Of a DNA stretch of 64,000 nt, positions 27,648 through 38,682 are shown piece by piece. Under the pieces are notes generated by a model. That model did not search any database, had not been told where the DNA came from, and saw only the letters and a list, made by a program, of their open reading frames with translations. The first letter of the stretch is position 1. Every line of letters starts with the position of its first letter. This stretch comes from Planctomycetota bacterium (GTDB lineage: Bacteria > Planctomycetota > B15-G4), in NCBI GenBank assembly GCA_038212275.1, contig JBBQUR010000002.1, forward strand, positions 192,001 to 256,000, read 5' to 3'. Made by a program: the position numbers and the translations under genes.

Positions 27648-30257
27648 TCATCCCGCTCCGCCCAGGAGGGCAGACACGATGACGATGACGATGGCGATGC
27701 CGAGTCCCAGCGCGAGGAAGCCGAACACGCGGAAGGCGCGCTCCAGCTCCGGCGGGAACGGGCCAGTGAGGTGTTTCTGAAGCTCGCCTGAAGCCAGCAG
27801 CCGCTCGTACTCCAGCGGCTTGTCGTGGCGCAGCTCTTCCAGCGGCATGCGGCCCGTGAACATGACCATGTCCATCGGCCACTTGTCAGGGCGCAGATGC
27901 GAGTTGAAGAAGTGGATCGTGAAGATGAACACCACGGCAAGCAACGCTTCGTCGCTGTGCACGATGGTCGCGACGTTGAGGAACCAGCCTGGCACGACGT
28001 GCGTGGCCGCTTCGGGGAACCAGAGCATCAGTCCGGTGAGGCCGATGACCGCGACGCCCCAGAACACCGCGAAGTAGTCGAACTTCTCCCAGTAGGTGTA
28101 GCGCTCGAAGCGCGGCCTGGGACCGCGGCCGACGAACCAGCGCAGCATGCCGCGCAGGTCGTTCCAGTCGCGGCGCCCGAACATGAGCGTGTCGGGAGCC
28201 GTCAGCATCGCCAGCCAGCTCCGCTTCCAGCTGCGCCGCTTGCTGATCAGGTCGAGCAGGTGCACGCAGAAGATGGAGATGAGCGCCAGGGCGCCGATGC
28301 GGTGCAGCACGCGCATGGCATCGGGGCCGCCGAGCACGGGCGCGATGGCACCGGCCCAGCGCGCGGCCGAGAACTTCAGCGCCATGCCCGTGACGGCAAG
28401 GTCGAAGAAGGCCAGCATCATCACCATGTGCTGGATGCGCTGCTGGCGCGAGAAGCGCCTGAAGAACCAGCCCTCGCGCGTGGAGCGCATCGCCGCCTTG
28501 CCGGCCTGCCATTCCTTGCGCGTGCGCAGCAGCTTCACCAGCCATGCGGCGCTGTGTGCCAGCGCCACCACGAGCGTGCCGACGAGCAGCAGCGTCATGG
28601 CCCAGAAGGTCCAGAACAGCCACGGGTAGTGCTCCCGGTCATGCGGCGTAGCGTGCGTGAGGTAGCCGGTGAAGGCGACATGCGCGCCCTCGTGGCACTG
28701 GCTGCACGTGTTCACGATGTGACTGCTGCCCAGCGTCGAGGCCGGGTTGGAGGGCGGAAGGATCGCGTGCGTACCGTGGCAGTCGTAGCACTTGGCGGCC
28801 ACCGAGGAGCCGAGCAGCGTGGCCTTGCCGTGCAGCGTCTCGAGGAAGGTCTCGGCTTGCTCGGCATGGCAGTTGCCGCAGCTCTCCGTGACAGCCATCC
28901 GGAAGTTCGTCCCGTCGGTGCGGCCGATGGTGTGCGCCGTGTGGCAGTCGTTGCACGTGGGCAGCCTGCTGTCCGTCTCGGTGTTGCCCCGCCAGTGCAC
29001 GCCCGCGTGATATTGCTCCTCGATGCCCTGGTGGCACGCGCCGCACGTGGCCGCCACGTGATCGGGGGCAATGGACGAGCGCGGGTCCGAAGGCGCCTGC
29101 ATGGAGTGCGCGGTGTGGCAGCTCACGCACGTGGCGGCGACCACGAGGCCGGAGTCCATGAGGGCCTTGCCGTGAATGCTCTCCGTGTAACCACCGACGA
29201 TGTCGGCCGGAGCACGCCCGGTGCCCGCCTCGGCCTCGAGGCGCCGCGAGGCCTTCTCGCCCTCGCGATGGCACGTCGCGCAGAGTGCGGGAATGCGGCG
29301 CACGAACAGTGGCGAGTCGGGCTGCGTGTGCGGCGCCGCCGCGTGAACGTCGTGGCAGTCGAGGCAGCGCGGCGCATCGCTCACGCCCTGCGCGGAGAGC
29401 ACTCCATGGATGCTGGCCGCGTACTCATCGACGACGGCTGCATGGCACACGGCACAATTCACCTCATGAGTGGCCGTCTCGCAGGGCCGAGTCGGAGAGG
29501 CCCGCACGTCGGCGTGGCACTCCGCGCAGGCGATGCCCGCGTGCATGCTGCCGGCATAGGCCTCCGCCGCCACGTGAAGGCCCGGCCGCGCCGGGCCGTC
29601 GCCGGCGTCCAGATCGGTGCGCGCGTGGCACTCCATGCAATCGGCGTTCGCAAGGCCGCCGGGTTGCGCCGGCCGCGCGTCGTGCGACGCGTGGCAGTCC
29701 GCGCACGAGGGAATGACGCGTGGCGTCTGCTCCCAGAGCTCCGGGGCCATGACCTGCGCGTGCACCTCCGGCAGGCGCGTGTGGCAGGCGCCGCAGGTTT
29801 CCGCGACGCGCTCGCGGCTGGTGCTCGACTGTGGCTCGTCGGACGGCTGCACATCGTGGCCGGTGTGGCACGACGCGCAGGTCGCGGCGTCGATGAGTCC
29901 CTTGGCCGCCCTGCCCGGTCCGTGGATGCGGTCACTGGACGCGAAGGGGGTTGCCTCGTCCTCGTGGCACGTGGCGCACCGCACCGGCGCCACCTCGGCC
30001 GCGTGCAGTCCGTCCGTGCCCGCGAGGTCTGCGTGGCAGAGCACGCAGTCCATCGGCCCGTGGACGGAGGCCTCCAGTTGCGAGGCATCCACGAAGACCG
30101 ACATCGGGCGGCCGTTGCGGCTGCCCATGAGCTCGGGGTCCTCGTGGCAGCCAAGGCAGTCCGCGTTTTCCTGCGCCGCGACGGGCAGCGCCGCCAGGAG
30201 CACGACTCCCAGCGCGCGGAGGAGGGCACGAAGGTTGAACCGCTCCGTGGTGAACAT
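27648..30257 (-). CDS. 17-heme c-type cytochrome fused to a membrane cytochrome b domain (CbcL-like quinol oxidoreductase)
   Basis: Signal peptide; 17 CxxCH counted; C-terminal TM helices with His (QRIQH, VLHR, IVHSDEA, TIHFF) and YTYWEKFDYFAVFWG. Confidence 0.88.
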   Translation of the reverse strand: MFTTERFNLRALLRALGVVLLAALPVAAQENADCLGCHEDPELMGSRNGRPMSVFVDASQLEASVHGPMDCVLCHADLAGTDGLHAAEVAPVRCATCHEDEATPFASSDRIHGPGRAAKGLIDAATCASCHTGHDVQPSDEPQSSTSRERVAETCGACHTRLPEVHAQVMAPELWEQTPRVIPSCADCHASHDARPAQPGGLANADCMECHARTDLDAGDGPARPGLHVAAEAYAGSMHAGIACAECHADVRASPTRPCETATHEVNCAVCHAAVVDEYAASIHGVLSAQGVSDAPRCLDCHDVHAAAPHTQPDSPLFVRRIPALCATCHREGEKASRRLEAEAGTGRAPADIVGGYTESIHGKALMDSGLVVAATCVSCHTAHSMQAPSDPRSSIAPDHVAATCGACHQGIEEQYHAGVHWRGNTETDSRLPTCNDCHTAHTIGRTDGTNFRMAVTESCGNCHAEQAETFLETLHGKATLLGSSVAAKCYDCHGTHAILPPSNPASTLGSSHIVNTCSQCHEGAHVAFTGYLTHATPHDREHYPWLFWTFWAMTLLLVGTLVVALAHSAAWLVKLLRTRKEWQAGKAAMRSTREGWFFRRFSRQQRIQHMVMMLAFFDLAVTGMALKFSAARWAGAIAPVLGGPDAMRVLHRIGALALISIFCVHLLDLISKRRSWKRSWLAMLTAPDTLMFGRRDWNDLRGMLRWFVGRGPRPRFERYTYWEKFDYFAVFWGVAVIGLTGLMLWFPEAATHVVPGWFLNVATIVHSDEALLAVVFIFTIHFFNSHLRPDKWPMDMVMFTGRMPLEELRHDKPLEYERLLASGELQKHLTGPFPPELERAFRVFGFLALGLGIAIVIVIVSALLGGAG

Positions 30258-30399
30258 GCCCCGCCCTCGCGCCGGTCAGCGTGCCTGCCGCACGAAGCGG
30301 CAGGCGCGCAGGAACCAGGCCGCAGCCGCCCCCGCCGAGAGGCCTTCCGCGCGCGGCCACACGGCCGCCGCGGGCACGACACCGGAGTCGCTCACGCCG

Positions 30400-31125
30400 T
30401 CACGGCTTGTCGCAGCTACCGTCGGCTGCGCCGTGCGCGCAGGCGCATTCGGTGCACGCGCAGGTCGCCGCCAGTGCGGCCTTGCGTTCGTCGGAAAGCT
30501 CACGGCGCGGATCGAGATGCCGGATCTTCGGTTCGTACTCGCGGAAGCAGAACTTCTTGAAGGTCGGGCTTTCCTTGTTGTGGCAGCCGACGCAGGTGGC
30601 CGCGCTCGGGGTGAAGACGATCTCGCCCTCGGGCACGACGACCTTCTCGCCATCCTTCGCCTTGGCGGCGGCGGCGAAGCGCGCCTTCATGTGCGCCTCA
30701 CCCGGACCATGGCACGACTCGCATTGCACGCCCATGTCGGCCTTGAAGCCCGAGGCGAGTTCTTCGGCCGGAACGCCGAAGGCCGTCACGTGGCACTTGA
30801 GGCACGCATCGGCCTTCTGCGGGTCTTCGATGCCGAGCTTGCTGGCGGCTTCCTTTGCCTCGGGCGACGCGAGGCGCGCGAAGGCCTTGCTGTGATCCGT
30901 GCCTTCCCACTGGGCGAACTGGTCGCCGCCCGCCTCGGACTTGTGGCAGTTCTTGCACTTGGCGGCGCCGATGTACTTGTTGGCACCCGCCGCGCTGGCG
31001 CCAGGAACGGCCGCGCGCACCGGCACGGGATCCAGGGATCCGGCAGCAACGAGACCGAGGGCACACGCGGCGACGACGAGTCCGCTCCAGAGGCTTGAAG
31101 ACAAACCGAGGCACTTCACGCGCAT
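30400..31125 (-). CDS. Tetraheme cytochrome c554-like protein with a Cys-rich C-terminal tail
   Basis: AGGAGGAG RBS; YIGAAKCKNCH, CLKCH, GVQCESCHGPG, CVGCH; tail CACTECACAH...C. Confidence 0.85.
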   Translation of the reverse strand: MRVKCLGLSSSLWSGLVVAACALGLVAAGSLDPVPVRAAVPGASAAGANKYIGAAKCKNCHKSEAGGDQFAQWEGTDHSKAFARLASPEAKEAASKLGIEDPQKADACLKCHVTAFGVPAEELASGFKADMGVQCESCHGPGEAHMKARFAAAAKAKDGEKVVVPEGEIVFTPSAATCVGCHNKESPTFKKFCFREYEPKIRHLDPRRELSDERKAALAATCACTECACAHGAADGSCDKP

Positions 31126-31203
31126 CTCCTCCTGAACAGGGCCATTCGATTCCCGGCGCAGTCTGTCCCGAAGGTGGGCGCAGCCGCGCAGGGAGAAATA
31201 TTC

Positions 31204-31220
31204 CGCAACCCTCGTGCCAA
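31204..31220 (-). promoter_or_regulatory. Sigma-54 -24/-12 promoter upstream of the c554-like gene
   Basis: Minus strand TTGGCACGAGGGTTGCG, an exact TGGCACG-N4-TTGC match about 80 nt before the ATG. Confidence 0.75.
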
Positions 31221-31238
31221 CTGCGGAGACCGCGAGCT

Positions 31239-32147
31239 TCAGTCCGGCGGAAGCGATTCGCCAGCCGACGCGACGCCTGTGTCGGGCCACGCCGGGAAAT
31301 ATCCCGCGGCTGCCGCTGCATTCTCATTGCCGCGGAGCGCCGCGCGGACGGCGGCCGCCCAATCGTCGTCCGCTTCGGCGGCCAGATCGGCGCCAAGCCG
31401 CCGGAGCTGCGGGGGCGTGCCGAACTGCGCGACCGTTGCCGCGGCCCGGCGCCGCAGGTCGGGCGGGATCTCGCGAGCGCTCACGCACTCCGCAAGCAGC
31501 GCCACGGCGGCCGGCTCCCGTGCGCCACGTGTCGCGAGGTCACTCAGCGCAAACTCGGGCAGCGACGCGTGTCCGGTGACGCGCGCATCCGGATCCGGCG
31601 GCAGGCGCAAGGCATGTGCAAACCAGGTCCCCGCCTCGGGCGAGCCGGTGTCCCGGAGCGCACGCAGCAACGCGACGCGCTCGGCGTCGGCATGACCGGG
31701 TGCGAAGACCGACGGAGCCAGCTCGGCAAGTCCGCCCCCAGGCTGTCCGGCGATGACGACGAAGTGCTGATAGAGCGCGCGCTCGCTCCCCGGCCGGGGC
31801 TGCCTCGGGAACTCGGCCTGATCGGAATCCGCAGGCCCGCTCGCCGCCGCGGGCCACGGCGCCTCGGCGTTCGGCTCGAGCGCAACGGCCTGCAGCGCCT
31901 CCGCGGCGACGGAGCCTGCACGGCGGTTCGCCATCGACGCCGCATCCGGCACATCCGGCACATCTGATGAAGGCATCGCGGCGCTCGAGACCGCCTGGCC
32001 CGACGCCTCCACTGCGGCCGGCGGACGCTGCGGTCCGGCGTCCGCCATCACCAGCGCGATGACCGCGGCGACCGTCGCCAGCACGGCAACGGTCGCTGCA
32101 AGCATCGCTCCCCGCGTGCCGGGTGCCCTGTGGGATGCCGTGTTCAC
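31239..32147 (-). CDS. Hypothetical protein: N-terminal TM anchor, Ala/Pro linker, helical C-terminal domain
   Basis: GTG start after GGGAGG, 10 nt after the decaheme gene stop; hydrophobic MLAATVAVLATVAAVIALV. Confidence 0.65.
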   Translation of the reverse strand: MNTASHRAPGTRGAMLAATVAVLATVAAVIALVMADAGPQRPPAAVEASGQAVSSAAMPSSDVPDVPDAASMANRRAGSVAAEALQAVALEPNAEAPWPAAASGPADSDQAEFPRQPRPGSERALYQHFVVIAGQPGGGLAELAPSVFAPGHADAERVALLRALRDTGSPEAGTWFAHALRLPPDPDARVTGHASLPEFALSDLATRGAREPAAVALLAECVSAREIPPDLRRRAAATVAQFGTPPQLRRLGADLAAEADDDWAAAVRAALRGNENAAAAAGYFPAWPDTGVASAGESLPPD

Positions 32148-32157
32148 GCACCTCCCG

Positions 32158-35100
32158 TCAACGCGGCTTGTGGACCAGCTCCACGGCGACTTCCTTGCCC
32201 TCGCCGTGGCAAAGGGCGCACGCCTCGGCGCCCGACAACGTCGTCTGCGTCTCGATATGCACCGTGGTCAGGTCGTCGTCGTGGCACGCACTGCAGACCG
32301 AGGCCCATTCATGCACTTCCGGCGTCTGGCCGCCGACGCCGGGGTAGTCGCGATCCGCGGGGCCCTGCCACAGCGTGTTCTCGGTGCCGTGGCACTTGGT
32401 GCAGTTCATCGTGCCGCCGGGGAAGGCCGGGAACTCGACCTCGTCGTACATCGAGGCGGCGCCGCCGAATCCGATCACCTGGTAGGTGCTGGCATTGGCC
32501 AGCTCCGCGCCTCGGTGAATCTTGTGAAGCATCGTGCGGAAATCGATGGTCACGCCGGTCGACGGAGGCGCCGACGTGGTGTCGTACTGCGCCTTGTCCT
32601 CGCCGCCCGAGACGCTGTGGCAGAGCAGGCAGGACTCCACGCCGCGCCGGCCGCCGCCGTGGAACTGCGTGTCGTTGTGGCACGCGTTGCAGTTGGCGGT
32701 GGACGAGATGATCTCGTGCGGCATCACCTCCGTGGCCGTGGCGCCGTACAGGAAGTTGAAGTCGACCGCGTTCGAGGTGCTCCGGTAGGTCTGCACCTCG
32801 CCCTGCAGGGCGACCTGCAGATTCTGCGAGAACCACAGCGAGACGACGCAGGTGCCGTCCACGTAGGGCCTGCCGACCCATTCGCCCCACTCCGGACCCA
32901 GCGTGTCGGAGTCATTGGGCGGCGGCTGGTAGAGAGTCTGCAGCGTGTCGCCCGCGTGCCTGCGGTAGCCGAAGACGCCGTCGGTGCGGTAGGTCAGCAC
33001 GACGCCGTTGCTGTTGGCGGCGAAGGGCACGACCGACGTGATCGTGCCGTTGGCGGCGTTCAGCGTGTACTGATTGCCGGCGCCCTCCTGCCGGAAGGTC
33101 AGCGTGGCCTTGCCCACCGCCGCGCCGCTGGCGTGTGCGTAACGCACCGGCGACTTGAACCACATGCGCGTCGCGCTCTCGACCCATCCCAGCTGCAGAT
33201 ACTCGCGGGTGCCCAGACCTGCTGCGCTGTCGAGCACGACGTAGGTCGTCGAGGCGGTCGTGTAGCCAGCCGTGGACGCGACGTCCACGTAGCGCGCGAA
33301 CGGCGCGACATCGGCACTGAGCGTCGTCGGGTTGGCCACGGCCGTCACTTCGGAGAGCGCCTGCCGCCCGAAGTAGACGGGCAGGTTGCCCGCCGTGAAA
33401 GTCTGCCCGACCATGCCGTTGCCATCGCCGAGGTACTCGGTCGTGAACTCCATCGGGAACGCGATCGTGTAGCTGGACGCGTCCGGCACGAACTCGTAGT
33501 AGATGCGGTCGGGCGTCGGGAGCGTGCCCGTGAAGGCCGTACGCCCCGCGATGATCCCGAAGAGCACCTGGCTCGCCGGGCCACCGAGGAGCCCCGACAC
33601 GCCCGTCTCGAAGACCGTCACGTAGATGGTGTTGCCCGCGGCGAAGGCCGTGCTGCCCGCCGCGACGAGGAACGCGACGGTGCCGTCATCGGAGGTGAAG
33701 GCGTTGCTGCCGCTCACCGTGCTGGGAAGCGTGCCGGAGCCCATGGCCCCGGTCACGGAGCCCGTGACCGTGAAGGCCTGGGGTCCGGAGAAGGTCACGG
33801 CGAGGTTCTGAGTCACGGCGTCGCTGCGGAGAATGAGCGCGGAGAGCGACGAACCGTTCGGGTTTGTGCTCTTGCCGTCCACCGGCTGCAGCGCGCCGCT
33901 GCCGAGGCTGCCGCTCACCGTGCCCGTGACGGTGAACGCCGTGGCCGAGCTGAACTCCACCGTCAGCGTCTCGGCCACCGCAGGGCCGGACGCGACGACC
34001 TTGCTCATCGCGCCCTTGCCCGACGCGCTCGCGGCCTGCAGGCGGCCCGCGAAGTCGTACGGGCTGAGGCTGACGTTGCTCGTCCCGGTGTACGGCATCA
34101 TGACCTGCTGGTTGTTCGTCGGGCCGAGGAGCAACGACACCGAGGCGTCCATCGCGGTCAGGCCGACGGGGTCGCCCTGCTCGGTGCCGAGGCTGAAGAC
34201 GAGACGGGGCGTGTCGCCCGCCTGAAACCTGCCGCCGGCTCCGGTGCCACCCACGACGTCCGTGATGTCCACGTCGATGCCCGCACTGATTGCCGGATCT
34301 TCGAGCGGATGGGCGTGACCGTCCACGACGGCAAGCGAGTCGCCCTCCGTGGCGTGGCACACGTTGCAGGAGCTGCTCGGATTGGCCGGCATGATGTCCT
34401 GATTGGCTGCATAGGGCCGGTTCCAGTCGATGTCGTCGTGGCAACTTCCGCACGAGGCGCGGCCCGGCTGCGACTTGTAGAGATCGCCCTGAGCGGGGGC
34501 CTGCAGTTCGCCGCTCCCATCCGGATCGCCGTGGCACTTCAGGCACGTGGTGGCGCCGGCGCGGATCGCGTCCTCCTGGGCCTTCTGGCCCGAGGTCAGC
34601 GCCGAGTAGCCGTAGTCCTTCGGGACATTCGACGTGAGGTTCGGCCAGACCGGGAAGCGGACGAACGAGAAGTCGTTCACGCTGTTCATGAAGCCGACCA
34701 CCTCATAGGGCGCCGGAGTCGCGTCATAGTTGCGCGTCCCGTCTTCGTTCGTCGCCACGCCGTTCACCGACGGCAGGTGGTTGGCGTTGTGCAGCTTGTG
34801 GATCATCACCCTGAAGTCGATCGACACTCCGGGCGTGCCGTCCGCCGCCGTCGCCACGTTCTTGTCCTCGGCGCCGGCCGTGTGACACAGGAGGCAGAGC
34901 TTCGCCTCGCGGCGCAGGCCGCCGTGCGCCTGCAGCGACACGTGGCACTGGTTGCAGTTCTCGGTGCTCACGACGTCGCGCGAGGCGATCGCCGGTGTCG
35001 TGCCGAGCAGGAAGTCCTTCGTGGCGTTGCCGACATCGCGGTAGATGGCGCCATCGACGGTGTAGGTCCAGGCCGTGTACATGCCGACGGTGTAGGTGCC

Positions 35101-35679
35101 ACCCAGCAGCGACTCGCCGGCCAGCTCGCCGTCCGCGGCCCCGAAGGACGCGCTGTCATTGAGCGGCGGCAGGTAAGCCTCCGGGATCGGCGTCGCGAAG
35201 GTGTACTTGTAGGTGGCCACCCCCACTTTCACCGAGGCTGTCGCCAGGTCGGACTTCTCCGCGAGCACCCGCTGATAGTTGAAGGAAGGGCCCGACATCA
35301 TGATGCGCGCGGTGCCCATCTCGGCCAGGCCCCACGAGGAGCCATCGTTCTTCTTGAGCGTGAAGGTGACCGACAGCTTGTCGCCCGGAGCGAAGTGATC
35401 GGAGTTCGGCTTGGCCGCCGACGCGCTCGGCGCCGCGGCGGACGGCAGTGAACCGCCGGACAGCTCGATGATCTGCAGTTGCACGCCCGGCGCGTCTTCT
35501 GCCGGCAGCAGCTGGGTGTCCTCCGGCGTCGGCTCGGCCGAACTGCCGCCCGATCCGCCGCCGCCGCCGCCGCTGCCGCCACCGCAACCGGCGAGCAGCC
35601 CCGCCGTGCAGAACACCACGGCCATGAACTGCGCGGGGACCGAGATTCGGAAGAAGGAGGGCAAGGCGCTGAACTTCAT
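32158..35679 (-). CDS. OmcA/MtrC-family decaheme outer-membrane lipoprotein cytochrome, unusually long (1173 aa)
   Basis: Lipobox LAGC plus Gly linker; 5+5 CxxCH in two domains, each with CNxCH...HGGxRR...CLLCH...IDFRxMxHKxH, separated by beta-rich domains. Confidence 0.88.
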   Translation of the reverse strand: MKFSALPSFFRISVPAQFMAVVFCTAGLLAGCGGGSGGGGGGSGGSSAEPTPEDTQLLPAEDAPGVQLQIIELSGGSLPSAAAPSASAAKPNSDHFAPGDKLSVTFTLKKNDGSSWGLAEMGTARIMMSGPSFNYQRVLAEKSDLATASVKVGVATYKYTFATPIPEAYLPPLNDSASFGAADGELAGESLLGGTYTVGMYTAWTYTVDGAIYRDVGNATKDFLLGTTPAIASRDVVSTENCNQCHVSLQAHGGLRREAKLCLLCHTAGAEDKNVATAADGTPGVSIDFRVMIHKLHNANHLPSVNGVATNEDGTRNYDATPAPYEVVGFMNSVNDFSFVRFPVWPNLTSNVPKDYGYSALTSGQKAQEDAIRAGATTCLKCHGDPDGSGELQAPAQGDLYKSQPGRASCGSCHDDIDWNRPYAANQDIMPANPSSSCNVCHATEGDSLAVVDGHAHPLEDPAISAGIDVDITDVVGGTGAGGRFQAGDTPRLVFSLGTEQGDPVGLTAMDASVSLLLGPTNNQQVMMPYTGTSNVSLSPYDFAGRLQAASASGKGAMSKVVASGPAVAETLTVEFSSATAFTVTGTVSGSLGSGALQPVDGKSTNPNGSSLSALILRSDAVTQNLAVTFSGPQAFTVTGSVTGAMGSGTLPSTVSGSNAFTSDDGTVAFLVAAGSTAFAAGNTIYVTVFETGVSGLLGGPASQVLFGIIAGRTAFTGTLPTPDRIYYEFVPDASSYTIAFPMEFTTEYLGDGNGMVGQTFTAGNLPVYFGRQALSEVTAVANPTTLSADVAPFARYVDVASTAGYTTASTTYVVLDSAAGLGTREYLQLGWVESATRMWFKSPVRYAHASGAAVGKATLTFRQEGAGNQYTLNAANGTITSVVPFAANSNGVVLTYRTDGVFGYRRHAGDTLQTLYQPPPNDSDTLGPEWGEWVGRPYVDGTCVVSLWFSQNLQVALQGEVQTYRSTSNAVDFNFLYGATATEVMPHEIISSTANCNACHNDTQFHGGGRRGVESCLLCHSVSGGEDKAQYDTTSAPPSTGVTIDFRTMLHKIHRGAELANASTYQVIGFGGAASMYDEVEFPAFPGGTMNCTKCHGTENTLWQGPADRDYPGVGGQTPEVHEWASVCSACHDDDLTTVHIETQTTLSGAEACALCHGEGKEVAVELVHKPR

Positions 35680-35765
35680 GATCCGAGATCCTCTTGTCCT
35701 GAAACCGGGTTGAAGGCGGAGTGCTCTCACAGGAAGCCGAAGGCACGCCCCTCGCGGACTGCTTG

Positions 35766-35781
35766 AGCAATTGGCGTGCCG
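35766..35781 (-). promoter_or_regulatory. Sigma-54 -24/-12 promoter upstream of the decaheme gene
   Basis: Minus strand CGGCACGCCAATTGCT = GGCACG-N4-TTGCT, about 87 nt before the ATG. Confidence 0.72.
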
Positions 35782-36045
35782 TTCGCTCAATGGAAATGAG
35801 CCTTGAATCGCCGGGGCGCACGCGTTCGGGAGCCTACTCGACATGTCGCGGCCAAACTTTTCCCACTCGCGGCAGCCTCGTCGCCTCGGAACGGAAGCGT
35901 GCGCATGCGACTCACGGCAGAGGCCTGCCTGCCCCCTGCCGACGCGTGCAGCAGCAACTCGGTCATGTCGCCGGCGCTGAGGCGTCCCGGGGAAAATCCC
36001 GCTGTCGTCACTGCATTCTCAGCTGCGGCTTCACTCGGCGCGGCC

Positions 36046-36125
36046 GCCTCGCTGGTGGCATGCCTCACTGGTGGCATGCCTCACTTGTGGCAGCCCTCAC
36101 TTGTGGCAGCCCTCACTTGTGGCAG
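36046..36125. repeat. 16-bp tandem repeat x5 (CCCTCACTTGTGGCAG) duplicating the last codons and stop of the 13-heme gene
   Basis: Units at 36046, 36062, 36078, 36094 and 36110, diverging stepwise away from the gene. Confidence 0.9.
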
Positions 36126-37153
36126 AAGGTGCAGTCGTCGCCGTTGTCCACGTGCGGCAACGGAGCGGAGATGCCGTGACAGGCCCGGCAATCCATGCCC
36201 GGGAAGTGGTTGGGCGGCTGGTCGGTGGCATCCAGGTGACTGGGCGTGCTCTTGTGGCACACCGAGCAGCTCTCGCTTTGCAGCGGGTAGTGACATGCCA
36301 TGCAGTGCGTGTCCTGAGGAGCGCCCCACGCGCCGCTGTTGTGACTCAGCGGCGGAGTGTCGTTGTGGCAACGCACGCAGGAGGACGGTTCGTGGCAGGT
36401 CCTGCACGAGTCGCGATCCATGTCGGCGACGACGCCGTGGCCGCGCAGTCTCCAGAAGTTGTTGTGACTGGCCGGCGGCTGGTCCTGGTGGCACTTGATG
36501 CAGGTCTGGTCCGTGTGGCAGAGGGTGCAGTCGTTCGCGGGCCCCTCGAAATCGCCGCGCACCGCAACGCCGTGTGTCGTCATCCACTGCTGACTGTGAT
36601 TCGGGGGCATCGTGTCCGTGTTGATCAGGCTGTGGCAGACCGTGCACGAGGTGTCCTGGCCGACGCTCTGATGGCAGCGGATGCAGTCGTCCATGCGCGG
36701 CGACACGGAGGGATCCACGAAGTCGTTGGTGAGGATCGGCTCGTGGCACGCTTCGCAGGAGGCGCCCGCGCCGACGTGCGTCGCGTGCGAGAACTTCACC
36801 TCGTCCGCCAGCGCCGAGGCGCGGGTCGCGCGGTAGGCATCGCCGTCGAAGAGCGAGGCCACCTGCCGGTCCGGCTCCTTCCCGGCATCCAGCTCCTCGT
36901 GGCACAGCGCGCACTGGGCCGGCTTCACGTCCTGGACGACGTCGCCGTCCTCGTACGCGGAGTGGCAGTCGCTGCAGCTCAGGCCTTCCTCGAGGTGCCG
37001 TTCGTGGCTGAAGGCAAGCGGCTTGTCGCTCAGGCCCAGATACTGCAGCACCGCGCAGCCGGTGATCGCGAGCACGGCCAGGGAGAGAAGCCTGGCCAAC
37101 CTGCCGCGCGAACCCGGTCGACGCCCATCCGTGAGTCTGTCTAGAAGCGCCAT
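36113..37153 (-). CDS. 13-heme c-type cytochrome (cytochrome c3/c7-like N-terminal half)
   Basis: ATG at 37153 overlaps the porin 3' end; hydrophobic N-terminus with ITGC; FSHxxH motifs; 13 CxxCH counted. Confidence 0.87.
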   Translation of the reverse strand: MALLDRLTDGRRPGSRGRLARLLSLAVLAITGCAVLQYLGLSDKPLAFSHERHLEEGLSCSDCHSAYEDGDVVQDVKPAQCALCHEELDAGKEPDRQVASLFDGDAYRATRASALADEVKFSHATHVGAGASCEACHEPILTNDFVDPSVSPRMDDCIRCHQSVGQDTSCTVCHSLINTDTMPPNHSQQWMTTHGVAVRGDFEGPANDCTLCHTDQTCIKCHQDQPPASHNNFWRLRGHGVVADMDRDSCRTCHEPSSCVRCHNDTPPLSHNSGAWGAPQDTHCMACHYPLQSESCSVCHKSTPSHLDATDQPPNHFPGMDCRACHGISAPLPHVDNGDDCTFCHK

Positions 37154-38682
37154 GTTGCCTTCGCCGTGAGGGTGTCGAAGTTGTCCACGTCGCTCACTTC
37201 GTGATCGATGCCGAGCGACCACGTGAGCGTCTTGTCCACGAGATACCGCATCGTCAGGTAGTAGTCGCGCACGTCCTGGCGATCCTCGTTGAGCAGGAAG
37301 TCGTTCTTGTACAGCGCGTAGAACGAACCGAGCGACATCCGGACGGCCTTGGTCCACTTCCGCGTGAGGTCGACGCCCCACGTCGCGTATTCGGTGTTGT
37401 CGTTGCCGTCCCAGAGCTCGCCGGTCACCGAGAAGTCCAGGTCTTTCGTGACGAAGTCGTGCGTCGTCTCCGTGAGGAAGTAGCGCGTGAACTCGTGGTT
37501 GAAGTCGCCCTCGTCGTCGCTGTTCTTCAGCTTCCGGCCGTCCAGTCCGGCGGTCACGTCGTAGCCGGCTTCGAAGGATTTGCTGGCCAGCACGCGCGCC
37601 TGACGGAAGGGTTCGTACTGCGTCAGCGTGGCGTAGTAAGGATCGAATTCCTCGACCAGGAACTCCTGCGTGCGAAGCAGCTCGTGATACCAGAAGTTCA
37701 CCAGCCAGCCGGACTCGGGGCGCACCCACGTCGCGCGCAGATCGAGATCGCGCGGCTTCTCCTCGAGCACGGAGTAGGCGCCTTCCACGTGCACCTCCTT
37801 GCCGAACTGCTGGCCGAGTCGCGCGGCGTAAAGGTCGTTGTTCTCCGAACCCAGCTGCGACTCGCCCTGCTGCACGCCGTTCTCGATGTGCAGCGCGTCG
37901 AGGCGCAGCTTGCCGCCCTCCCACGGCCGCACCTTGAAGTAACCGCCGACCACCTTGTTGCCCGACGACGACGACTCGTACTCGTAGTCGGACTGACCGA
38001 GGTAGGCGCCGTATTGCTGCCGCGCCGAGCCATCCGGCGCGGTCTCGATGGCCACGCCGTCGAAGCGCACGTACTCGGGCGTGTCGTCGAGCTGCTGGCG
38101 GCCGATGCGCAACAGGCTGAAGCCGTTCTCGTGGAAGTCCGCGTACGCCTCGTACAGGTTGGAGTGCACGGAGTTGGAGTAGGTGTCCTCCAGACCGCCG
38201 TACAGGTCCTGGTTGCTGTTCTTGTCGAGGTCCCACGCGGCCCGGGCCAGCACGTAGCCGGTCACCTCATCCTTGGCCGCGTCACCGATGCTCGTCTCGA
38301 GCAGACCGTAGATGTCCGTGTCGTGCGTGCCGCCCGTGGTCCTTTCCACGAAGCGCAGCCCGAACGATCCGTGCACCACGCCGCTCTCATCGATCTCGCC
38401 TTCCTTGCCATCGTCCGTGGTCGCGCCCGCGGCGGCAGATCCGTACGGCGAGGCAGCGCCGGCAGGAGTTGTTCCCGGCGCGCCCTCGTCCACGGAGACC
38501 ACGGCACCTTCGCTCCATGCTGCGGTGTCGCCCGTCTCGCCGGCGCCCGCTGCGCCTTGAGCAGGACTGCCGCCGGCCGGGCCGGCACAACCCGCCATCA
38601 GCGAGGCGGACGCCACGCCGGCAGCCAGTGCAAGGAGGAGGCCGTAGCCCCTGGGTGCCGATGATTCGCCGTGTCTGTCCAC
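37141..38682 (-). CDS. Putative outer-membrane beta-barrel porin of a porin-cytochrome complex
   Basis: Signal peptide with MAGC; alternating amphipathic strands (LYEAYADF, LRIGRQ, YGAYLG); acidic loops; C-terminal AKATWRF. Confidence 0.75.
   Translation of the reverse strand: MDRHGESSAPRGYGLLLALAAGVASASLMAGCAGPAGGSPAQGAAGAGETGDTAAWSEGAVVSVDEGAPGTTPAGAASPYGSAAAGATTDDGKEGEIDESGVVHGSFGLRFVERTTGGTHDTDIYGLLETSIGDAAKDEVTGYVLARAAWDLDKNSNQDLYGGLEDTYSNSVHSNLYEAYADFHENGFSLLRIGRQQLDDTPEYVRFDGVAIETAPDGSARQQYGAYLGQSDYEYESSSSGNKVVGGYFKVRPWEGGKLRLDALHIENGVQQGESQLGSENNDLYAARLGQQFGKEVHVEGAYSVLEEKPRDLDLRATWVRPESGWLVNFWYHELLRTQEFLVEEFDPYYATLTQYEPFRQARVLASKSFEAGYDVTAGLDGRKLKNSDDEGDFNHEFTRYFLTETTHDFVTKDLDFSVTGELWDGNDNTEYATWGVDLTRKWTKAVRMSLGSFYALYKNDFLLNEDRQDVRDYYLTMRYLVDKTLTWSLGIDHEVSDVDNFDTLTAKATWRF

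Follow-up and report, generated by a model that had tools for sequence, protein, structure and literature searches.

A predicted all-beta insert with a self-nested ~70-residue unit in an OmcA/MtrC-family cytochrome of a Planctomycetota bacterium

To our knowledge, the study of outer-membrane cytochromes is based almost entirely on Shewanella, and how such cytochromes find and hold a solid electron acceptor is still debated. In the OmcA/MtrC family, beta-barrel domains I and III flank the heme domains and give a staggered-cross packing of the hemes. In conduits of the MtrCAB type, the genes for the periplasmic decaheme cytochrome MtrA and the 26-strand porin MtrB are adjacent. Here we analyze a relative of MtrC encoded on the minus strand of a 64,000-nucleotide stretch of DNA from a Planctomycetota bacterium (Bacteria; Planctomycetota; B15-G4 in GTDB; assembly GCA_038212275.1, contig JBBQUR010000002.1, positions 192,001 to 256,000), which we call the window and to which all coordinates refer. 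In the Shewanella MtrCAB complex, as described in passages of PMC7198977, domain II docks its heme C5 on MtrA, and heme C10, in domain IV, lies ~90 Å above the bilayer; the same passages describe a hydroxylated PTPTD motif near heme 10 of MtrC that is proposed for hematite binding. Shewanella-type outer cytochromes are all described, in passages of PMC4486940, as having a CX8-15C motif in domain III, the disulfide of which gates flavin binding near heme 7.

The window gene product is an OmcA/MtrC-family decaheme cytochrome with a long insert in domain III. Part of this insert is a ~70-aa unit nested inside a second copy of itself, and homologs of the unit occur in phage, flagellar, and G8/CEMIP-type proteins.

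Architecture of the cytochrome and its insert

Several profiles place the protein in its family. It scores 254.6 bits on TIGR03507 (OmcA/MtrC; cutoff, 209.3), with the match in two stretches split by the insert, and PF22113, which covers domains II and IV of MtrC/MtrF, matches it twice (E 3.6e-43). A profile of the window protein and 66 homologs matches chains of MtrF, OmcA, UndA, and MtrC in the Protein Data Bank (PDB; 3pmq, 4lmh, 3ucp, and 6r2q), via the heme domains only. There are ten CXXCH motifs, five on each side of the insert, and eleven conserved non-motif histidines outside it, enough for ten distal heme ligands. Inspection of the translation shows a lipobox, LLAGC, after a hydrophobic stretch, which marks a lipoprotein signal. 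Hemes 5 and 6 are 559 aa apart.

A preliminary description of this DNA, made from the sequence alone, reported that domains I and III align internally and that equivalent anchor motifs are far more widely spaced in domain III. The motifs all lie where they were placed. In domain I, GPSFNYQRVL ends at open reading frame (ORF) residue 194 and YLPPLNDS starts at 224, leaving 29 aa between them; in domain III, GPTNNQQVMM ends at ORF residue 583 and YQPPPNDS starts at 972, leaving 388 aa, which we number i1 to i388. In a BLASTP comparison of domain I with everything from heme 5 to heme 6, the sequences on either side of the insert align (E 5e-4 and 1e-5), and sequence resembling domain I picks up again at about i373. 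The truly extra material is therefore ~360 aa, the size first proposed. The insert was also called heme-free and rich in Thr, Ser, and Gly, and we agree: it has zero CXXCH motifs and zero Cys, with 22.9% Ser plus Thr (18.1% in the mature protein) and 11.9% Gly.

The proposal of a folded, beta-rich module fared equally well. Modeled alone by AlphaFold2 (AF2) from a 73-row alignment, the insert is predicted to be ordered and all-beta, with 24 strands and no helix (mean pLDDT 93.6, pTM 0.90); the first ten residues are poorly modeled, and residues 161 to 180 are weaker than the remainder. In this model, the insert would be built of four compact beta domains that form two nested pairs.

Between hemes 5 and 6 there is a single Cys (ORF residue 999, protein residue 944), so the Shewanella-type CX8-15C disulfide cannot form in this protein, as the preliminary description had pointed out. 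The missing disulfide is not tied to the insert. The four insert-free MtrC proteins of the same phylum that we fetched also lack the domain III Cys pair, and the two traits are thus uncoupled. Across 127 ten-heme homologs, domain III has no Cys in 64 and one in 36, so that 100 of them have at most one.

Misassembly, a frameshift, and an intein were ruled out as sources of the long domain III: the gene is a single open frame (GC content at third codon positions 0.89, stop to stop), and the architecture recurs on independent contigs in 93 of the 120 best homologs.

The nested unit, the C-module, and their relatives

The insert had been described as carrying a duplicated unit, and the two repeat stretches quoted in support are indeed similar (49% identity over 39 aa, E 2e-10). 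We built a hidden Markov model (HMM) of the ~70-aa unit from six copies, drawn from three non-cytochrome proteins and the window protein. In the window protein it finds half a unit, then a complete unit, and then, weakly, the other half (Table 1). To compare relatives, we classed homologs by the spacing between hemes 5 and 6 as long (>520 aa), intermediate (~474 aa), or mid (~350 to 373 aa). The N-terminal half and the full unit are both found in 11 of 11 long-class loci and in 13 of 15 newly found cytochromes (P0207 and P0216 have no N-half match). Ten of these 11 loci (L002-L009, L013, and L014; none for L008) also match the C-terminal half of unit 1 at the corresponding position, with independent E-values (iE) of 8e-4 to 0.7.

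The shorter forms tell the same story. Among seven intermediate-class proteins that we ran, three have a single, contiguous, significant unit (P0094, P0104, and L010), L011 has the C-terminal half only, L012 has a match that is not significant (iE 0.064), and P0137 and P0162 are not listed among the matches. P0094 and P0104 are without i72-144 and i155-174, i.e., most of the nested unit, with i145-154 still aligned, and the ~960-aa homolog class is without insert residues 6 to 206 altogether. In structural alignments, a contiguous ~90-residue domain of FlgK/FlgL extends across the insert from i7 or i13 to i203 while using only 84 to 90 residues. Because the half/full/half pattern of the HMM, the intermediate class, and the FlgK/FlgL spans all agree, we conclude that unit 2 sits in a loop of unit 1, so that the unit carries a second copy of itself.

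The rest of the insert, residues ~207 to 388, is a C-module that is present in every homolog class and has near-invariant residues at G223, R318, H321, Y343, T353, and Y369. Its stretch i250-339 gives contiguous structural matches (Z 5.1-7.6) to decoration and insertion domains of phage tail tube, baseplate, tail tip, tailspike, and P22 coat (I-domain) proteins, the best being to the tail tube, baseplate, and tail tip decorations (Z 6.7-7.6). Other structural rows run from i211 or i214 to i372 with only 71 to 81 aligned residues. From these aligned ranges, the C-module looks like a two-domain structure in which an outer domain encloses an inner one.

What other proteins carry the unit? Against 5.8e9 sequences, the unit profile (six units, E <= 1e-3) finds 112 proteins, of which 48 are MtrC-like cytochromes. 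The 64 others comprise 12 tail sheath proteins, 19 G8/CEMIP proteins, 4 FlgE proteins, 1 head decoration protein resembling lambda gpD, 1 phage tail protein, 2 invasin/Big_1 proteins, and 25 proteins without a Pfam match; of seven unit proteins in this last group that we examined, four match phrog_687, a virion structural protein. Pairwise comparisons point the same way, with E 2e-14 for the unit against a tail sheath protein (P0166), and 39% identity (E 7e-12) between unit 2 and the unit of a G8/CEMIP beta-helix protein. One unit-bearing G8/CEMIP protein is fused to a GH5 cellulase. The unit lies ahead of the conserved domains in sheath proteins, in three tandem copies in P0166 and two in most other sheath matches; it lies at the D2 domain in FlgE; and in the gpD-like protein P0242 it interrupts the gpD (HDPD) fold, where a 116-position profile spans aa 10 to 214. 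Judged by these sequence matches, the unit is a promiscuous extracellular module, which in phages and flagella occupies the outside of tail sheaths, heads, virion proteins, and hooks. A side observation concerns P0170, the first ~540 residues of which equal those of the tail sheath protein P0166, with low-complexity sequence of no relation after that; a frameshift in a copy that lies on a short contig is the probable cause.

The preliminary description had likened the insert to beta domains of phage structural and surface proteins. This holds for the unit, given its homology to sheath, gpD-like, and phrog_687 proteins. The C-module is seen in our protein searches only in these cytochromes and has no tblastn match among 50,697 phage records. 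In the same phage records, tblastn of unit 2 gives one weak match, in the Ralstonia jumbo phage RsoM2USA (E 6e-4), and a word-based search using unit 2 alone finds cytochromes only. The matching phage gene, RsoM2USA_359 (L031; MG752970.1, 226174-227745), has one unit copy with 42.5% identity over 71 aa, and its neighbours are all annotated as hypothetical.

Existing family models are silent on the whole region. The unit has no model in Pfam, NCBIfam, or PHROG, and neither the insert nor its halves belong to a family in those collections; against Pfam the insert finds nothing even at E <= 10, and the best match of unit 2 is Fn3_arc (E 0.12). Searched against PDB sequences, the unit profile finds nothing significant (best E 0.068). 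In BFVD, Foldseek with the insert reaches E <= 1e-3 for ten proteins of phages or giant viruses, and their TM-scores are low throughout. In the ESM Atlas, the nearest clusters for i30-206 are small phage proteins (0.90-0.91), which we take as a lead only, and scores for the C-module (0.79-0.86) are leads at best.

Distribution, conservation, and gene neighbourhood

The insert is not confined to this protein and is the majority form among its closest homologs: the best 120 of 257 homologs include 93 of the long class, 2 at ~474 aa in which one unit is reduced, and 25 with the C-terminal half only. Some of these proteins are annotated as OmcA/MtrC at their source, which refutes uniqueness by the yardstick of the preliminary description. 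Searching 1.84 billion representative proteins with the insert gives 53 matches, consisting of 30 proteins with heme motifs, 19 short heme-free pieces, and 4 non-cytochromes. Within the window's phylum, the insert is found in 22 of 401 sampled genomes, the window's own included, and TIGR03507 is matched in 44 of the 401. Eight of those 44 genomes have end-to-end TIGR03507 matches in frames of 723 to 840 aa; four such canonical-size proteins that we fetched are insert-free, with 176 to 204 aa between hemes 5 and 6. None of ten genomes from the window's own family has an insert match. One genome of that family (G376) has two genes of the class with ~360-aa spacing, one of which matches the C-module by BLASTP and the other not at E <= 1e-3. 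In the window's genome, the unit occurs in this gene and nowhere else.

The insert also extends beyond Planctomycetota. A metagenome-assembled genome (MAG) labelled Deltaproteobacteria, which NCBI ranks under Myxococcota, has the long form, and the phylum of this MAG gives an insert match in 8 of 301 genomes sampled. The source names of further matches include Byssovorax, Polyangiaceae, and Kofleriaceae. The second phylum with the insert is probably Myxococcota.

Sequence identity to 51 long-class homologs averages 46 to 61% in the insert segments, 54 to 59% in the heme domains, and 45 to 51% in the barrel cores. The insert is thus comparable to the heme domains and is not a fast-evolving decoration. 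In a FastTree phylogeny of 74 rows, made from columns outside the insert, the spacing classes cluster, and a minimum of 3 class changes suffices. Adding the Myxococcota-labelled long forms in an IQ-TREE phylogeny of 43 rows, rooted on the canonical-size proteins, places those forms at the base and requires 4 changes. Both trees show the canonical-size proteins as an outgroup to the insert-bearing family, with a split support of 100%. Taken together, they are compatible with units gained step by step as well as with losses from a long ancestor.

Three observations on the homologs stand apart from this comparison. For the ~960-aa homologs listed, identity with the window protein is 54 to 64% over domains I, II, and IV and 24 to 40% over the domain III core and C-module, a low value that may be a ranking effect or may reflect faster or class-specific change. 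Seven long-class proteins (P0089, P0100, P0120, P0124, P0129, P0131, and P0139) have N-terminal extensions, ahead of domain I, with 4 to 11 regularly spaced Cys, of which the window protein has none. Finally, a 2047-aa frame in one genome of the phylum (G256:C2:576178-581640) holds two tandem MtrC-like proteins and may be a fusion or a missed stop codon.

Table 1. Positions of the cytochrome gene, its domains, the parts of the insert, and two neighbouring genes in the window
Feature	Coordinates	Strand	Basis or remark
Open frame with the insert	35844..32158	-	Stop-to-stop ORF; likely start Met at 35679
Whole gene, 1173-aa OmcA/MtrC-family decaheme lipoprotein precursor	32158..35679	-	Stop codon 32158-32160
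Signal peptide ending in lipobox LLAGC, then Gly/Ser linker	35584..35679	-	Read from translation
Domain I, N-terminal beta-barrel-type domain (aa ~60-236)	34972..35502	-	Aligns to both insert flanks in domain III
Domain II, hemes 1-5	34345..34971	-	CXXCH at aa 242, 262, 379, 410, 438; PF22113 match
Domain III core before insert	34096..34344	-	Aligns to domain I, E 5e-4
Insert, 388 aa (i1-388; protein aa 529-916)	32932..34095	-	Between the two domain III anchors; AF2 all-beta
Unit 1, N-terminal half (i~13-68)	33892..34059	-	Unit HMM 2-35 at protein aa 564-597, iE 4e-9
Unit 2, complete, nested in unit 1 (i~88-167)	33595..33834	-	Unit HMM 2-71 at aa 618-695, iE 1e-26
Unit 1, C-terminal half (i~175-205)	33481..33573	-	Weak: HMM 43-56 at aa 704-717, iE 7.7
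C-module putative outer domain, first part (i~211-249), invariant E220, P239	33349..33465	-	Structural alignments; conserved columns
C-module putative inner domain (i~250-335), invariant E298, near-invariant R318, H321	33091..33348	-	Contiguous structural matches
RYAH motif (R318, H321)	33133..33144	-	Kept in 90% or more of the 73 rows of the alignment
C-module putative outer domain, second part (i~336-376)	32968..33090	-	Last strands correspond to domain I hairpin
Domain III core after insert, with domain III's single non-heme Cys	32710..32931	-	Aligns to domain I, E 1e-5
Domain IV, hemes 6-10	32161..32709	-	CXXCH at aa 997, 1017, 1093, 1129, 1154; PF22113 at 993-1171
Upstream neighbour, periplasmic multiheme cytochrome, 13 CXXCH	36113..37153	-	Motif count
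Upstream neighbour, 513-aa lipoprotein, possible outer-membrane porin partner	37141..38682	-	No Pfam/NCBIfam match; role suggested by position only

The gene belongs to a cluster (27648-38682, minus strand) that differs from textbook mtrCAB. Its 13-CXXCH neighbour scores 23.6 bits on the DmsE/MtrA-type model TIGR03508, for which the cutoff is 192, and the 513-aa lipoprotein matches no family in Pfam or NCBIfam. On the 3' side of the MtrC-like gene, the same strand encodes a 302-aa unknown protein, a four-heme c554-like protein, and a 17-CXXCH protein fused to a cytochrome b561-type membrane domain. The neighbourhood of insert-bearing cytochrome genes differs among relatives. In one Planctomycetota MAG (L013; 1-4252 and 8951-9745), the long-form cytochrome follows genes for an Fe-S-type protein, a 466-aa membrane protein, and a four-heme protein; the pair of barrel candidate and 13-heme cytochrome is replaced upstream of the cytochrome, and a c554-like gene lies downstream. 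From these different flanking genes, the partners of the cytochrome appear to vary between genomes. As for expression, no RNA run is listed among the sequencing runs that contain sampled words of this DNA; the DNA run that contains all of these words is a sediment metagenome, from which this DNA may come.

Possible roles of the insert and comparison with known systems

What might such an appendage do? With five plus five CXXCH motifs intact and eleven conserved non-motif His, the electron path is probably that of MtrC, and the insert itself most likely carries no electrons. The protein would be the outermost cytochrome of a porin-cytochrome electron conduit, with one loop of its putative second beta-barrel (domain III) expanded by ~360 residues. 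If it docks as MtrC does in Shewanella MtrCAB, domain III and the insert would lie on the membrane-distal half. A rigid appendage of four predicted beta domains, built in part from modules that decorate surfaces, is best read as an arm for attachment or contact. It may be a non-redox, outward-facing arm that holds the cytochrome to a mineral, to extracellular matrix or glycan, to a neighbouring cell, or laterally to neighbouring copies. We give this reading about an even chance.

Several points weigh against it. Phage and hook decoration domains are usually variable, but this insert equals the heme domains in conservation, which fits a specific interaction better than generic decoration. R318 and H321, both near-invariant, could be in contact with a heme propionate or a cofactor, in which case the insert would belong to the redox machinery. 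No known adhesin, Ig-like, or carbohydrate-binding (CBM) family in Pfam or PHROGs matches the insert, and Foldseek against the PDB gives nothing at E <= 1e-3. The structural matches that do exist are all middling (best Z 7.8) and may reflect a common arrangement only, and the apparent nesting within the C-module comes only from aligned ranges in structure searches.

If R318 and H321 belong to a defined site, together with E220 and E298, the insert could instead be a steric shield or gate over domain III and heme 7, controlling access of flavin, oxygen, or soluble acceptors and so replacing, through bulk, the redox-active disulfide of Shewanella. Such a role would suit a protein without the flavin-gating disulfide, in a family where 64 of 127 homologs have zero domain III Cys and 36 have one, and it would suit an insert conserved to the level of the heme domains. 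However, the insert-free MtrC of the phylum (four of four) lack the Cys pair as well, so the missing disulfide and the presence of the insert are uncoupled, and the insert matches no flavin- or nucleotide-binding family. We consider gating rather unlikely.

The contexts of the unit suggest a different role, that of lateral self-association, in which the cytochromes would form a surface array or filament and the unit would be placed, as on sheaths, hooks, and capsids, between the subunits of a polymer. Most annotated non-cytochrome contexts are helical or icosahedral assemblies (12 sheath, 4 FlgE, 1 gpD-like, and 1 tail protein, plus 4 with phrog_687), structure searches rank outer domains of FlgK/FlgL and decorations of tail tubes or baseplates highest, and high conservation fits a protein-protein interface. 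Against this, the 19 unit-bearing proteins of the G8/CEMIP type are enzymes not known to polymerize. An array built on the insert seems quite unlikely to us.

We give less credence still to a docking platform for a second redox protein, be it a paralogous outer cytochrome, as in MtrC-OmcA, or an electron shuttle. The insert is well conserved, and in several genomes two such genes lie close together (G352:C40, G391:C242, G010:C145, and G376:C2), but the window's genome has the insert and the unit in this gene alone, and the gene neighbourhood is not conserved among relatives. A tolerated passenger, in which mobile decoration domains occupy a permissive loop without a function of their own, would explain why the unit recurs in loops of unrelated proteins and why forms with two, one, and zero units all persist, but it is very improbable given that the insert has invariant residues, is kept in two phyla, and, in 51 long-class homologs with overall identities down to ~45%, is conserved to the same degree as the heme domains.

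An arm for attachment or contact thus remains the reading that we prefer. In its boldest form, captured and self-nested domains of phage or flagellum type would lock cytochrome copies together or onto a solid acceptor. We think this unlikely, but if it were true, Planctomycetota and Myxococcota could build a conductive cytochrome layer on a principle unlike that of Shewanella MtrC/OmcA or Geobacter filaments, and the unit would represent a new, widespread family of extracellular insertion domains found in phage virions, flagellar hooks, glycan-active enzymes, and redox proteins. Whatever the role, the family is a large uncharacterised MtrC-type clade in two phyla that have been little studied for extracellular electron transfer, and it combines an intact heme wire with a conserved, folded appendage that is most likely non-redox. 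The natural variants with two, one, and zero units are a ready-made deletion series. The ~70-aa domain delimited here, absent from Pfam, is also a clear case of a domain inserted into its own copy.

Open full text yielded no description of the insert or the unit, in a search that left subscription journals and supplements outside its scope. Passages of a survey of Mtr systems (PMC8805035) do not mention Planctomycetes or domain III, and passages of PMC10732223 and of a preprint (10.64898/2026.05.27.727921) do not describe the insert.

How, then, does the protein compare with what is known? With Shewanella MtrC, MtrF, OmcA, and the undecaheme UndA (PDB 4lm8-type), it shares the lipoprotein signal, the five plus five CXXCH motifs, the two PF22113 domains that each follow a putative beta domain, a score above the TIGR03507 cutoff, and a gene that adjoins one for a periplasmic multiheme cytochrome. 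It differs in the 559-aa spacing of hemes 5 and 6, against ~174 in MtrF (from an alignment) and 176 to 204 in canonical-size relatives, because of the ~360-aa, predicted four-domain insert in domain III; hemes 2 and 3 are also farther apart (117 against 49 to 71), and the periplasmic neighbour has 13 CXXCH motifs instead of 10. The domain III CX8-15C motif of the Shewanella cytochromes is missing. Shewanella MtrC has PTPTD, whereas the window protein has no [ST]-P-[ST] motif anywhere, and contact with solids may therefore use other surfaces. Canonical-size OmcA/MtrC proteins from the same phylum (L025-L028, 723 to 805 aa) are closer in that they have ten hemes, match TIGR03507 end to end (392 to 466 bits), and likewise have no domain III Cys pair, but they are insert-free and have the short spacing between hemes 5 and 6.

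The insert has its own set of counterparts. It shares a homologous ~70-aa unit with the decorations of phage sheath, gpD-like, and phrog_687 proteins and of FlgE, and in these, too, the unit is inserted in a loop of a host domain and can repeat. Here the unit sits in a redox protein instead of a subunit of a polymer, the copies are nested and not tandem, and the unit is well conserved among the cytochromes. The outer domains of FlgK/FlgL (4ut1, 5ziz, 7c7z, and 9go6) are the best structural matches to unit 1 (Z 7.0-7.8, rmsd 2.5-3.2, 84 to 90 residues); identity is 10 to 16%, the Z-scores are middling, and the unit profile has no sequence match to solved chains. What is new relative to all of these systems is a ~70-aa module without a Pfam model, one copy of which is nested in the other, that an MtrC-type cytochrome shares with phage, flagellar, and G8/CEMIP proteins.

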